From Escherichia phage 899, in sequence record PV533660.1: a stretch of 33,804 nt of DNA; one strand, given 5' to 3'. Numbering within the stretch: position 1 is the first letter of the stretch; each line of letters opens with the position of its first letter. Shown here piece by piece: positions 22,801-25,228 of this stretch. The notes beneath the pieces are model-generated. The model had not been told where the DNA came from. It did no database searches and was given only the letters and a program-made list of their open reading frames with translations. The translations under genes and the position numbers were made by a program.

Positions 22801-22818
22801 TTTGTTTTTCAAATGTAG

Positions 22819-22838
22819 TACTGTGTATGTATACAGTA
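22819..22838. promoter_or_regulatory. LexA-binding site (SOS box), near-consensus
   Basis: TACTGTGTATGTATACAGTA matches the E. coli consensus TACTGTATATATATACAGTA at 18 of 20 positions and is a perfect CTGT-N8-ACAG palindrome; located between A stop and the cargo operon. Confidence 0.6.
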
Positions 22839-22881
22839 TTATGGATCAATTGACTTGTAAGGGGTTGCAAAAGCTGAAGTT

Positions 22882-22909
22882 TTGGAATTCGAATGTTTTA
22901 GTATAGAAT
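22882..22909 (+). promoter_or_regulatory. Candidate sigma70 promoter for cargo operon 2
   Basis: TTGGAA (22882-22887), 16-nt spacer, TAGAAT (22904-22909); GGAGG RBS at 22970-22974 before ATG 22979. Weak call. Confidence 0.3.
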
Positions 22910-22978
22910 GTGACAAATACTTGATTCGTTATTTCAATAGGTTACGTTTCCCTGAGCTATGTCTGGGGTGGAGGTTAA

Positions 22979-23530
22979 ATGAATAATTTAATGCTCGATA
23001 TAGAAACATTAGGTGTGTCAATGGATGCTCCTTTGATTTCAATCGGCGCTGTGTTCTTTGAGCCTCTGACTGGCAAGTGTGGGGATGAGTTTTATAGAGT
23101 TATAACCCTATCATCTGCATTGGAAAATAGTTTTGTAGACCCAAAAACTTTACAGTGGTGGATGATACAAAGCGATTCTGCAAGGGCGGTTTTTAATGAC
23201 CCGTCTGCTGTTGACTTACATGAAGCCTTACAAGAATTTTCTCTATTTGTACGAAGTCGTAGTAACGATGACGTACAAGTTTGGGGGAATGGGGCAAGCT
23301 TTGATAACGCTATATTGGCAGCGGTTTACCGTAAACATGCGCAAAATATCCCATGGCGTTTTCGAAATGATCGAGACGTGCGTACCATCGTTGAACTAGC
23401 TAAAAGCCTTAAGAATATTGATGTAAGGGCAAATTTTTCCATTAATGTTACTGATGCGCATCATGCGCTTCGAGATGCAAAGTTTCAGGTAGCTTATGTT
23501 AGTGCTGCTTTCCGTGCATTAGCTGGGTAA
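22979..23530 (+). CDS. DEDDh-type 3'-5' exonuclease (DnaQ-like fold)
   Basis: 183-aa ORF; motifs LDIETLG (Exo I), VWGNGASFDNAIL (Exo II) and HHALRDA (Exo III, H-x4-D); lower GC than backbone; no P2 counterpart. Confidence 0.8.
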   Translation: MNNLMLDIETLGVSMDAPLISIGAVFFEPLTGKCGDEFYRVITLSSALENSFVDPKTLQWWMIQSDSARAVFNDPSAVDLHEALQEFSLFVRSRSNDDVQVWGNGASFDNAILAAVYRKHAQNIPWRFRNDRDVRTIVELAKSLKNIDVRANFSINVTDAHHALRDAKFQVAYVSAAFRALAG

Positions 23531-23539
23531 CCGTAAGAT

Positions 23540-25183
23540 ATGGATATCAATTTAATAGATGTAACTAGTTGGCGTAAAGATGATGAGCATGGCATTTTTC
23601 CTCGAGGAGCGAGGGATAAAAAAATGCTTTGGTCACCGAATGATGCTCCTGAGGGGATAAAACCGGAATGGCCTTATCTTTTTAAACTCTCAAGAGATGC
23701 TTATCCCGATCAGTACTGGATGGAAACCGTTGCTTATATAGTTGGAGATGTTATGGGCGTTCCTGTTCCTAAAGCATTGCCAGCGCGAAGAATGATGGAG
23801 AACGGTGAATACGAATATGGAGCTTTGCTTGAGTGGTTTTACGATCAAAGTAGCCAGTTATTTGTTCATGCGTCTGATTTTTTTCATGTGTTGATATCGG
23901 ATTTTGATGACTCTTCCGGAAGACACCATAACCTTGTTGATCTACGCTTAATTTGTAGGGCTTTTAGTATCCGCGGCCTGATCTCTCCAGACTGGATCCA
24001 ATGGCTTTACGATATGCTGCTTTTTGATGCGCTCATCGGTAATAGTGATAGACACCAAGAGAATTGGGGTTTTGTTTTTGTACCTGAATCTGCACCAGGC
24101 ATAACGCCACCTAAAGTGAAGGGATATCTCGCACCATATTTCGATAATGGTACTAGTTTGGGGCATGAAAGGTATGTAGAGAGGATCAGAGGATGGAACC
24201 ATCAAAATGTAGATGAATACATACAGCGTGGTTGTCATCATTTGCGGAAGAATCGGGCAGACACGCATGAACGATTAGGTCATATTTCTTCTATACAGGA
24301 TTTGGCTCTTGATGAGCAGTCAAAAGCGTACTTGGCCCGGAGACTTGAATTTGATTTTCAGGAACTGGTCGACAAGATAGATTCACTTTGCGAAATTAGC
24401 TCCGATGTGCCGTTCACTAGGGAACGAGCGGATTGGACGATTCGTTTATTGAGGCGTAGATACCTAAGGTTATCACTGATTCTAAATATGCGTACTATAA
24501 ACAGAATAATGGAGCCTACTCGGTTGCTTCTTACATGGCAGCCACCCACAGGCGGTACTCGTTATGTTGTTGGTCAGATTGATCGTCAGCAAGGGGATAA
24601 CTACGTCTTCACATACCATTTTCAGTCAGAAGATTATGCTAAAGCCCAAGAGAAAGGGTTTGCAGGACATCCCGCATTTAGTCTGAAAAGTGAAGAACAT
24701 ACGAACAACGTGCTTGACCCGTTTGTTCGGCGTTTACCACCACGGAAAAGAAAAGACTTTGCTGAGTATCTGGCTCAACATTTGCTCCCCCATCCATTTG
24801 AAGGCTCTGATTTTGCGCTGTTAGGATATACAGGAGCAAAATCACCTGGCGATGGTTTTTGTTTGGTGCCAGATCCAGAAATTCTTAATAGTGAAGGTGA
24901 GCTTCTTTTTGAAGTGGCAGGAACTCGTTATCAGGAAGGGCTTGATTTGTCGAAAGTAATGGTCGGTGATTTGGTCAAGCTTGTTCCTGAAGAGGATAAC
25001 CCGGTTGATCCACATGCTATAGCTGTTGTTCATGAGAGCGGGAAACTTGGTTATATAAACAAAGTGTTATGTAAAAAACTCAAGCAAAAAATAGCAAAAC
25101 ACAAAATATCTGCTTTTGTTGCAAAGAAGAATGGGACGCCAGAACGTCCATTAGTGTACCTTTTAGTTGAATGTAGATCTTAA
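23540..25183 (+). CDS. HipA-like Ser/Thr kinase fused to a C-terminal HIRAN-like domain
   Basis: 547-aa ORF starting 9 nt after the exonuclease stop; catalytic-loop-like LFDALIGNSDRHQENWGF (about 24020-24070) and FDNGTSLG (24140-24163) resemble HipA C-terminal kinase motifs; C-terminal VAGTRYQEG...LVPEEDNPVDPHAIAVVHESGKLGYINK resembles the HIRAN consensus. Confidence 0.75.
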   Translation: MDINLIDVTSWRKDDEHGIFPRGARDKKMLWSPNDAPEGIKPEWPYLFKLSRDAYPDQYWMETVAYIVGDVMGVPVPKALPARRMMENGEYEYGALLEWFYDQSSQLFVHASDFFHVLISDFDDSSGRHHNLVDLRLICRAFSIRGLISPDWIQWLYDMLLFDALIGNSDRHQENWGFVFVPESAPGITPPKVKGYLAPYFDNGTSLGHERYVERIRGWNHQNVDEYIQRGCHHLRKNRADTHERLGHISSIQDLALDEQSKAYLARRLEFDFQELVDKIDSLCEISSDVPFTRERADWTIRLLRRRYLRLSLILNMRTINRIMEPTRLLLTWQPPTGGTRYVVGQIDRQQGDNYVFTYHFQSEDYAKAQEKGFAGHPAFSLKSEEHTNNVLDPFVRRLPPRKRKDFAEYLAQHLLPHPFEGSDFALLGYTGAKSPGDGFCLVPDPEILNSEGELLFEVAGTRYQEGLDLSKVMVGDLVKLVPEEDNPVDPHAIAVVHESGKLGYINKVLCKKLKQKIAKHKISAFVAKKNGTPERPLVYLLVECRS

Positions 25184-25200
25184 TCCAATGGGATAACATA

Positions 25201-25228
25201 AACCGCCTCTTTGAAGGCGGTTTTTTTT
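25201..25228 (+). terminator. Rho-independent terminator after cargo operon 2
   Basis: AACCGCC-TCTTTGAA-GGCGGTT hairpin followed by a T-run, 18 nt after the stop at 25183. Confidence 0.6.

Follow-up and report, generated by a model that had tools for sequence, protein, structure and literature searches.

A co-inherited exonuclease and HipL-type kinase–HIRAN operon in the gpA–cos hotspot of P2-family phages

Escherichia phage 899 (sequence record PV533660.1) carries, in the 33,804-nucleotide (nt) stretch of DNA analysed here (the window), a cassette made up of a LexA box, a gene for a 183-amino-acid (aa) exonuclease (gene 1), a gene for a 547-aa kinase (gene 2) and a terminator. Yersinia phage GMG73 (OP880301.3), which is P2-like, has a sequence identical to the window. 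The cassette is bounded by gpA, which ends at 22800, and by cos/gpQ (25537–26571, minus strand), the interval that forms the old/tin hotspot in P2, and has a G+C content of 0.41–0.45, compared with 0.52–0.58 in the flanking phage genes. The start codon of gene 2 lies 9 nt past the stop codon of gene 1, and the two genes share a leader and a single terminator. A preliminary description, made from the sequence of this DNA alone, had placed the two genes at the coordinates given in Table 1 with this spacing, and had noted both the lower G+C content and the location at the P2 tin/old site; an open reading frame (ORF) check and the composition and position of the cassette bear out all of these. RefSeq labels gene 1 as '3'-5' exonuclease' (WP_001774096.1) and gene 2 as 'HIRAN domain-containing protein' (WP_023253881.1, 547 aa).

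The cassette is a mobile two-gene accessory operon of the P2-family gpA–cos hotspot. A 2.5-kb segment recurs as a 100% identical copy in 61 of 5,426 complete Escherichia coli genomes (~1%), every copy being chromosomal and located in a P2-type prophage, with the 'replication endonuclease' gene (gpA) on one side and the portal gene on the other. The GMG73 record is named as a Yersinia pestis phage; cassette and leader are 100% identical in the 61 E. coli chromosomes, many of which come from human clinical isolates.

Gene 1 matches the Pfam family Rv2179c-like (PF16473) over its full length (E = 6.8e-57, profile positions 1–176 of 177) and phrog_255, 'exonuclease' (1e-62). The Exo I (D-x-E), Exo II (D) and Exo III (H-x4-D) residues are all present. 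In an alignment of 27 homologues with 46–87% identity, the DEDDh set (D7, E9, D109, H161 and D166) is invariant, and so is the N-D-R-D-V-R-T family signature. By sequence, 8kel/8ken is the nearest solved protein (E = 1.7e-5), and the same T4 DexA entries are the best Protein Data Bank (PDB) fold match (Foldseek E = 2.5e-10, TMq 0.78) of the AlphaFold 2 model (predicted local distance difference test (pLDDT) 92.1), followed by RNase T and oligoribonuclease (Orn). DexA trims DNA 3' ends in T4 host-DNA scavenging. Profile, five invariant residues and fold thus agree with the DEDDh exonuclease first proposed from the motifs.

Gene 2 is composed of a HipA/CtkA-like Ser/Thr kinase core without HipA N-subdomain 1, a HipS-like domain and, at the C terminus, a HIRAN domain. 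The core matches PADLOC profile PDC-M03A (residues 4–308, 3.8e-31), which backs the kinase assignment, and Pfam HipA_C below its cutoff (residues 23–206, 25.8 bits against 30.5). The PADLOC profile PDC-M03B matches residues 325–545 (1e-30), so that in PADLOC terms gene 2 is a fusion of PDC-M03A and PDC-M03B on a single protein. Within this second part, Couple_hipA matches residues 343–437 (8.3e-6; 26.7 bits, above the cutoff of 22.5) and HIRAN residues 453–525 (1.4e-10, above cutoff), the latter with the motifs AGTRY, N-P-x-D-x-x-A and G-Y-I-N. NCBIfam gave marginal matches only, HipA/YjjJ reaching E = 0.028 for gene 2. Across 61 homologues, the motifs G23-x-R25-x-K27, K49, E62, D170-R-H-Q-x-N175 and D202-N-G are invariant; in gene 2 itself, the Gly-rich loop reads G23-A-R-D-K27, the catalytic loop D170-R-H-Q-E-N175 and the Mg site D202-N-G. 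The preliminary description had recognised the HipA-type kinase and the HIRAN domain, which motifs, profiles and fold all support, and had missed the HipS-like domain between them.

An AlphaFold model of gene 2 built on the 61-sequence alignment (pLDDT 90.8, predicted template modelling score 0.90) matches Helicobacter pylori CtkA (Foldseek 1e-10, TMt 0.76), HipA (5e-7) and HipT (7e-6), and its C terminus matches the DNA-bound HIRAN domain of HLTF (4s0n/5bnh; E = 2e-4 to 6e-4, TMt 0.55–0.59). A search of the PDB with the gene 2 profile did not reach HipA and returned only CtkA (3.4e-10) and one HIRAN protein, lp_0118 (3k2y); the link to HipA and HipT therefore needed fold comparison. The HipS-like domain appears as a permuted counterpart of HipA N-subdomain 1 and is a candidate cis-regulator of the kinase. 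In HLTF, HIRAN domains bind 3'-OH DNA ends, and by analogy the HIRAN domain of gene 2 is a predicted binder of such ends.

Two types of gene 2 homologue were found. The first comprises full-length proteins from Enterobacterales and Aeromonas (41–95% identity). The second comprises kinases of ~310 aa that end where the HipS-like domain would begin and that are followed, in the genomes, by an overlapping gene of ~235 aa encoding HipS–HIRAN. Most relatives have the HipS-like and HIRAN domains on a separate HipN protein. Gerdes, Baerentsen & Brodersen (2021, mBio) named the arrangement of kinase core, HipS-like domain and HIRAN HipL, and its split form hipIN (PMC8262856). They proposed that HIRAN in HipL and HipN senses phage DNA ends, leading to abortive infection (PMC8262856).

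The pair has also been cloned. Rousset et al. (2022, Cell Host Microbe) surveyed the P2 gpA–gpQ hotspot, and their tables list 'DUF5051 + HIRAN' (WP_001774096 + WP_001774097) together with a split variant, 'DUF5051 + HipA_C + HIRAN' (PMC9122126). Plasmid pFR108, 'Exonuclease + HipA', was cloned from E. coli TA255 (their Table S2B; PMC9122126). Its primers match the window exactly at 22675–22694 and 25537–25556, which defines the cloned segment as 22675–25556; its exonuclease is identical to gene 1 and comes from the same hotspot, and its kinase is annotated from M29, and hence truncated relative to gene 2. The internal ATG at M29 (23624) is preceded by GAGGGA, a better Shine–Dalgarno sequence, and was rejected as the start because residues 1–28 hold invariant positions, including the Gly-rich loop. 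As W11, D14, G23, R25 and K27 are invariant in the homologues, we place the start at ATG 23540. The published M29 start, which removes the G23-A-R-D-K27 loop, is probably wrong. ATG 23540 has a poor Shine–Dalgarno sequence, and its translation is probably coupled to that of gene 1. pFR108 was assayed with native promoters on a low-copy pSC101 vector in E. coli MG1655 against eight phages: lambda, T4, P1, 186cIts, CLB_P2, LF82_P8, AL505_P2 and T7 (PMC9122126). It is listed in Table S2B, 'additional tested systems', and not among the 'validated' systems of Table S2A; the only P2 systems described as active in the text are three others, and the pair is listed with no accompanying analysis (PMC9122126).

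We then asked how regularly the two genes occur together. Kinase-anchored loci were taken from three collections and each locus was searched with the exonuclease profile; counts of fused (33) and split (148) loci include identical copies from different collections, and the clade and correlation analyses used unique sequences only. In 30 of 33 loci with a fused kinase, the exonuclease gene is the next one upstream, in the same orientation, and ends 4–13 nt before the kinase gene; the kinases of the other three are 25–35% identical to the query or frameshifted. Of the 148 split hipIN loci whose upstream sequence was long enough, 12 carry the exonuclease gene, at a gap of 16–20 nt. Wherever it is linked to the kinase, the exonuclease is located 4–20 nt upstream and never elsewhere in the locus. 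Viewed from the exonuclease, a kinase is present in viral contigs only in the 4 closest relatives among 80 loci.

In a neighbour-joining tree of 95 unique exonucleases, the 28 unique kinase-linked sequences are monophyletic, and every member of their clade is linked. In 18 unique cassettes, pairwise exonuclease identities correlate closely with those of the kinase (r = 0.98) and of HipS–HIRAN (0.97), and weakly with those of the flanking gpA (0.33) and gpQ (0.34). Because the parts co-diverge and the flanks follow them only weakly, the cassette moves between phage backbones as a block. Nearly all linked cassettes are located between gpA and gpQ, in quite divergent P2-family phages. These patterns indicate that exonuclease, kinase core and HipS–HIRAN are inherited and exchanged as one block, that the kinase–HipS–HIRAN fusion arose within the exonuclease-linked hipIN lineage and that the exonuclease is, on sequence grounds, a dedicated partner of the kinase. 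The operon-like unit first suggested by gene spacing is thus upheld by adjacency, monophyly and co-divergence, and the same pair does occur in other P2-like prophages at this locus. A cassette of exonuclease and split hipIN in a Shewanella metagenome-assembled genome (L005:3804–7642 in our locus numbering) and in L170 has no gpA or gpQ in the available flank and adjoins an IS3-type transposase pair and groES/groEL; it is the sole linked cassette seen outside a recognisable P2-like hotspot.

An alternative reading of the same loci is that two independent cargo genes sit side by side, a HREX-type DexA-like nuclease digesting modified (5-hydroxymethylcytosine) phage DNA and a separate toxin or defence kinase. 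P2 hotspots often hold more than one system, the best structural match of gene 1 is DexA, and the E. coli DexA homologue EcD ('HREX') protects against T4 on its own (Kang et al. 2025, Nucleic Acids Research; PMC12153337). Moreover, 136 of the 148 split hipIN loci lack the exonuclease, and 76 of the 80 related viral exonuclease loci are stand-alone, with no kinase. However, EcD is a different protein from gene 1: its primer-derived termini differ (EcD starts MIDTET and has another C terminus), by which an identity of the two was ruled out. pFR108 was tested against T4 and is not among the protective systems (PMC9122126). Two independent genes would also not account readily for linked exonucleases that form one clade, are always encoded on the kinase's strand, 4–20 nt upstream, and diverge in step with it across different phage backbones. 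Finally, an unrelated nuclease shows the same adjacency in Gram-positive hosts, where DEDDy diDNases, which are specific for deoxydinucleotides, adjoin HipA and HIRAN genes in about one third of 93 Actinomycete/Clostridial genomes (Nucleic Acids Research 2025; PMC11706625). The authors of that study left the link to HipA/HIRAN open (PMC11706625). Since the nucleases are DEDDy rather than DEDDh, the proteins are split and the hosts differ, the Gram-positive association appears independent in origin, and it provides independent support for an exonuclease–kinase link. We consider two unrelated genes unlikely.

The hipIN loci without an exonuclease have surroundings of their own. In 21 of them, hipIN directly follows (~5 nt) a type I restriction–modification specificity gene (hsdS, Methylase_S) inside restriction–modification operons; such embedded split hipIN loci (L023, L024, L026, L031, L056, L069 and others) come from Beta- and Gammaproteobacteria. 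Others lie behind a helix-turn-helix (HTH)–Peptidase_S24 repressor or an integrase. The hsdS, HTH-S24, integrase and umuDC-like surroundings of hipIN are mobile-element and defence-island contexts. No other exonuclease family was seen beside proteobacterial hipIN, a result that covers a systematic search with the Rv2179c-like profile and Pfam checks of a few neighbours.

A link of hipIN loci to SOS-type elements, either umuD/umuC-like or HTH-Peptidase_S24 genes, recurs. An HTH-Peptidase_S24 (LexA/CI-like) gene is directly upstream of hipIN in several proteobacterial loci (L057:5009–5914, L239:2880–3911), and the distant hipIN of gut phages (L291:1636–3350; similarly L286 and L289–L303) adjoins divergently transcribed umuD-like (Peptidase_S24) and umuC-like (IMS) genes.

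The cassette itself is headed by a predicted LexA box and closed by an intrinsic terminator, both already noted in the preliminary description and recovered here (Table 1). The 20-mer agrees with the LexA consensus TACTGTATATATATACAGTA at 18 of 20 positions. The CTGT-N8-ACAG pattern occurs twice in the window, compared with 0.28 expected by chance; the other match, CTGTTAGGATATACAG at 24818–24833 within gene 2, is probably a chance occurrence because its spacer is less AT-rich. In 24 of 28 unique related cassettes, the interval between gpA and the exonuclease gene contains a CTGT-N8-ACAG box, whose spacer is AT-rich and differs in sequence between cassettes. By comparison, only 6 of 73 P2-like hotspots that lack the cassette, used as controls, show a box within 1.6 kb of gpA. 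The leader (199 bp) is confined to the same 61 E. coli genomes as the cassette. We considered whether the box is a generic boundary feature of P2 hotspots and rejected this on both counts, its rarity in the controls and the confinement of the leader. The association of the cassette with an SOS signal is real at the sequence level.

The order of genes behind the box varies. The exonuclease gene comes straight after the box in this phage and in the relatives nearest to it. In many other cassettes, a conserved ORF (~60 aa, MQDYLLESLKLQRIDFF...) and then a DinI-like ORF stand between box and exonuclease gene (L166:1049–1480, L259:2694–3176, L252:2768–3278 and similar); in L259 the two ORFs are fused into a 160-aa Tum-like protein. 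GMG73 has neither ORF. The p95/tum promoter of phage 186 is a possible source of the hotspot LexA box: tum-like or DinI-like ORFs often follow the box, which may thus be co-opted from that promoter.

These observations bear on a second alternative, that the cassette is an SOS-linked phage or lysogen function and not a defence system, with a kinase that, expressed under SOS, slows translation and growth of the host (for persistence-like tolerance or takeover) and an exonuclease that trims or scavenges damaged DNA as DexA does for T4. It would accommodate the enrichment of the box, its place ahead of tum-like and DinI-like ORFs, the umuD/umuC-like and HTH-S24 neighbours of distant hipIN loci, the negative defence test of pFR108 and the classical tie of HipA to persistence. 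Nevertheless, the hotspot and the hsdS-embedded position are settings in which defence genes are typically found. The phage switch is of the P2-type C/Cox kind and tum is absent, so that SOS is not an obvious trigger of its lytic cycle, and the LexA box does not overlap the predicted promoter. We regard an SOS function of this kind as distinctly unlikely.

Table 1. Positions and supporting evidence of cassette features in the window.
Feature	Position	Strand	Evidence and remarks
LexA (SOS) box, 20-mer TACTGTGTATGTATACAGTA	22819..22838	.	Sequence read; predicted; 19 nt past gpA stop codon
LexA box core CTGTGTATGTATACAG, CTGT-N8-ACAG	22821–22836	.	Sequence read
Weaker promoter candidate TTGATT-16-TACTGT	22797–22802 and 22819–22824		Own sequence reading; overlaps LexA box
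Sigma-70-like promoter TTGGAA-16-TAGAAT	22882..22909	+	Consensus scan, 9/12 matches; prediction; ~70 nt ahead of gene 1
Gene 1 Shine–Dalgarno GGAGG	22970–22974	+	Sequence read; 4 nt ahead of ATG
Gene 1, DEDDh 3'-5' exonuclease, Rv2179c-like / T4 DexA-like, 183 aa	22979..23530	+	Pfam, phrog, invariant residues, fold match
Gene 2, 547 aa	23540–25183	+	ORF
Gene 2 residues 1–314, HipA/CtkA-like Ser/Thr kinase core, no HipA N-subdomain 1	23540..24481	+	Profiles, motifs, fold
Gene 2 residues ~326–437, HipS-like (Couple_hipA) domain	24515..24850	+	Pfam, PADLOC
Gene 2 residues ~453–547 and stop codon, HIRAN domain	24896..25183	+	Pfam, profile, Foldseek
Intrinsic terminator AAACCGCCTC-loop-GGCGGTTT then T8	25200..25228	+	Terminator scan; 17 nt past gene 2 stop; stem 25200–25223, 9 bp with 5 GC pairs

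We tentatively favour, as a possible account of the whole cassette, a growth-arrest module that senses DNA 3' ends, with the exonuclease as its modulator. The HipS-like domain would act as a brake that holds HipL inactive. HIRAN would bind free 3'-OH single-stranded DNA ends or short oligodeoxynucleotides, which would build up during phage replication or phage-driven breakdown of host DNA, or on DNA damage, and ligand binding would release the HipS-like brake on the kinase. The kinase could then phosphorylate an essential component of translation, by analogy with HipA (GltX) and HipT (TrpS), whereupon growth would stop and the infection would be aborted. The gene 1 exonuclease would most likely trim 3' ends or oligonucleotides, thereby keeping the sensor silent in healthy cells, setting its threshold or resetting it. 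Given the LexA box that heads the cassette, expression may be tied to the SOS response. The location in the P2 old/tin hotspot, the hsdS-linked relatives and the PDC-M03 match place the gene pair in a defence-type context.

The same linkage evidence would serve equally if the exonuclease were a positive component, either producing the HIRAN ligand from incoming or replicating phage DNA or from fragments of host DNA, or acting beside the kinase as a second effector, recruited by HIRAN, that degrades phage DNA. DexA-family enzymes act on 3' ends of both single- and double-stranded DNA, and RNase T-like folds leave defined short 3' products, as a ligand-making enzyme might. However, a 3'-5' exonuclease removes 3' single-stranded tails and would therefore destroy, rather than make, a ligand of the HLTF HIRAN type. 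Most hipIN modules have no such nuclease, and the partners in Gram-positive hosts act strictly as deoxydinucleotidases, enzymes that use up the smallest DNA products (PMC11706625). A positive role therefore seems to us distinctly unlikely.

The order of the genes, a small upstream gene followed by the kinase at 9 nt, resembles that of hipBA, and HipA-family kinases are established toxins; both would suit a toxin–antitoxin-like addiction module that stabilises the prophage, with the kinase as toxin and the exonuclease as a labile, binding antitoxin. Yet what lies upstream is no HTH antitoxin but a conserved enzyme whose DEDDh site is intact, an antitoxin-type HipS-like domain is already present within the kinase, and most relatives do without the exonuclease. 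An addiction module is, in our judgement, very unlikely.

Several points weigh against the sensing module that we favour. The 136 of 148 split hipIN loci that lack the exonuclease indicate that it is not essential to the kinase module. Most of the exonuclease family (76 of 80 related viral loci) consists of stand-alone phage genes. The Gly-rich loop of gene 2 has no Ser/Thr where HipA and HipT autophosphorylate, and regulation of the kinase may therefore differ from theirs. The HipA equivalent of the HipS-like domain is structural and not inhibitory. The best predicted promoter lies 44 nt downstream of the LexA box and does not overlap it, so that LexA control of the operon is a candidate only. 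The literature searched for HipL, HipI and HipN yielded no data on toxicity, kinase target, DNA binding or nuclease substrate. Finally, pFR108 with its native leader was not among the systems protecting against the eight-phage panel (PMC9122126). This negative weighs against an easily observed defence phenotype, and gives a first hint that the abortive-infection or defence role put forward in the preliminary description may lack a phenotype. In this, the only published defence assay, the leader was the native one, possibly repressed by LexA, and the panel was small, so that activity may have been missed; the authors themselves state that a small phage panel underestimates activity (PMC9122126).

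A broader form of the sensing module can be imagined, which we think unlikely as a whole: HipI/HipN-type HIRAN kinases would be immune sensors of DNA breakdown products (3'-OH single-stranded ends or oligodeoxynucleotides) that have twice independently recruited a small, dedicated DEDD exonuclease to clear the signal, the cassettes of P2-family phages being LexA-gated in addition. If this were true, the P2-family phages of proteobacteria would have recruited DexA-like DEDDh enzymes, and Actinomycetes and Clostridia DEDDy deoxydinucleotidases, the signal-clearing exonuclease would follow a logic like that of the type III CRISPR ring nucleases, and LexA gating would explain the lack of defence by the native-promoter clone. 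HipA-family kinases are a classic model of toxin-induced dormancy, and HipL and HipI/HipN form their HIRAN branch. The present cassette is a compact, naturally fused version found in ~1% of complete E. coli genomes and in a cultivable phage; together with its co-evolving exonuclease, the Gram-positive adjacency and the LexA box, this makes it a case in which a coupling of DNA-damage or DNA-end sensing to translation arrest can be tested. Should it have no role in defence, it would be an SOS-linked phage cargo that manipulates host physiology.

Other features of the window lie outside the operon. Between terminator and cos there is a perfect 7-bp inverted repeat, GTCAATA-N6-TATTGAC (25253–25272), and GGCGAGGCGGGGAAAGCAC (about 25348–25366), to the right of the terminator, is presumably the P2 cos end. 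A second low-G+C island (6942–9653, G+C content 0.36–0.46) lies just upstream of a gene at 10135 that is probably the tail sheath gene. It encodes a 461-aa ORF with only a weak AHJR-like nuclease-fold match (E = 0.0066, below cutoff) and a 348-aa DUF3800 protein (E = 1.4e-5) with a weak match to PADLOC PDC-M04A, and may be a second cargo or defence locus.

Among known systems, HipL is the closest to gene 2. It has the same three-domain build (a core without N-subdomain 1, a HipS-like domain in the middle and HIRAN at the C terminus), and gene 2 belongs to its Gram-negative branch. Gerdes et al. called HipL monocistronic (PMC8262856), whereas here and in all 30 close fused homologues a DEDDh exonuclease gene is located 4–13 nt upstream; 'monocistronic' is therefore not apt for Gram-negative HipL. 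Their description has neither a prophage-hotspot location nor a LexA box, both of which are seen in the present cassette. The literature searched held no experimental work on any HipL, HipI or HipN, and searches on HIRAN with anti-phage, on PDC-M03 and on Rv2179c with phage returned no functional study. The PADLOC candidate PDC-M03 consists of a kinase (A) and a HipS–HIRAN protein (B), both of whose profiles match gene 2. Its split relatives (PDC-M03/hipIN), 40–56% identical to gene 2, have overlapping A and B genes, whereas gene 2 joins A and B in one protein; an exonuclease is not part of PDC-M03. The preliminary description had taken the pairing to be unrecognised. This proved wrong, since the pair is already catalogued as HipL (PMC8262856), as PDC-M03 and as the pFR108 'Exonuclease + HipA' (PMC9122126) and is not new; its match to an already characterised system is partial, as what has been catalogued is uncharacterised.

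With HipBA and HipBST, gene 2 has the kinase fold and catalytic motifs in common, its HipS-like domain being the counterpart of HipS and of HipA N-subdomain 1. HipS neutralises HipT in HipBST, and both HipA and HipT phosphorylate aminoacyl-tRNA synthetases, thereby blocking translation (PMC8262856). The differences are several. In hipBA the partner is the HTH protein HipB, whereas here the sole neighbour is a DEDDh exonuclease and the cassette holds no HTH ORF. The domain order of gene 2 is permuted relative to HipA, with the HipS-like domain C-terminal of the kinase; the Ser at the autophosphorylation position in the Gly-rich loop of HipA and HipT is missing; and the closest solved kinase is H. 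pylori CtkA, not HipA.

T4 DexA is the nearest solved structure to gene 1 by sequence and by fold, at ~21% identity and with 227 aa against 183 aa, and EcD is a family member that acts in defence, the HREX class being defined as DexA homologues that have lost the tetramer-forming Asp, retain the 5hmC-recognising Trp and Asp and protect against T4; within the DexA-like exonucleases, kinase linkage is specific to the subclade of gene 1. In the diDNase clusters, too, a small DEDD exonuclease is encoded directly beside a HipA-type kinase and a HIRAN protein; these clusters are carried by mobile elements and have defence genes nearby. The diDNases are DEDDy, NrnC-like enzymes of Gram-positive hosts in which kinase and HIRAN are separate proteins, unlike the DEDDh, Rv2179c/DexA-like gene 1. 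What the present cassette adds to these systems is the placement of the HipL of P2-family phages within a conserved, co-evolving exonuclease–kinase operon, the association of that operon with a LexA box and a probable correction of the published kinase start.

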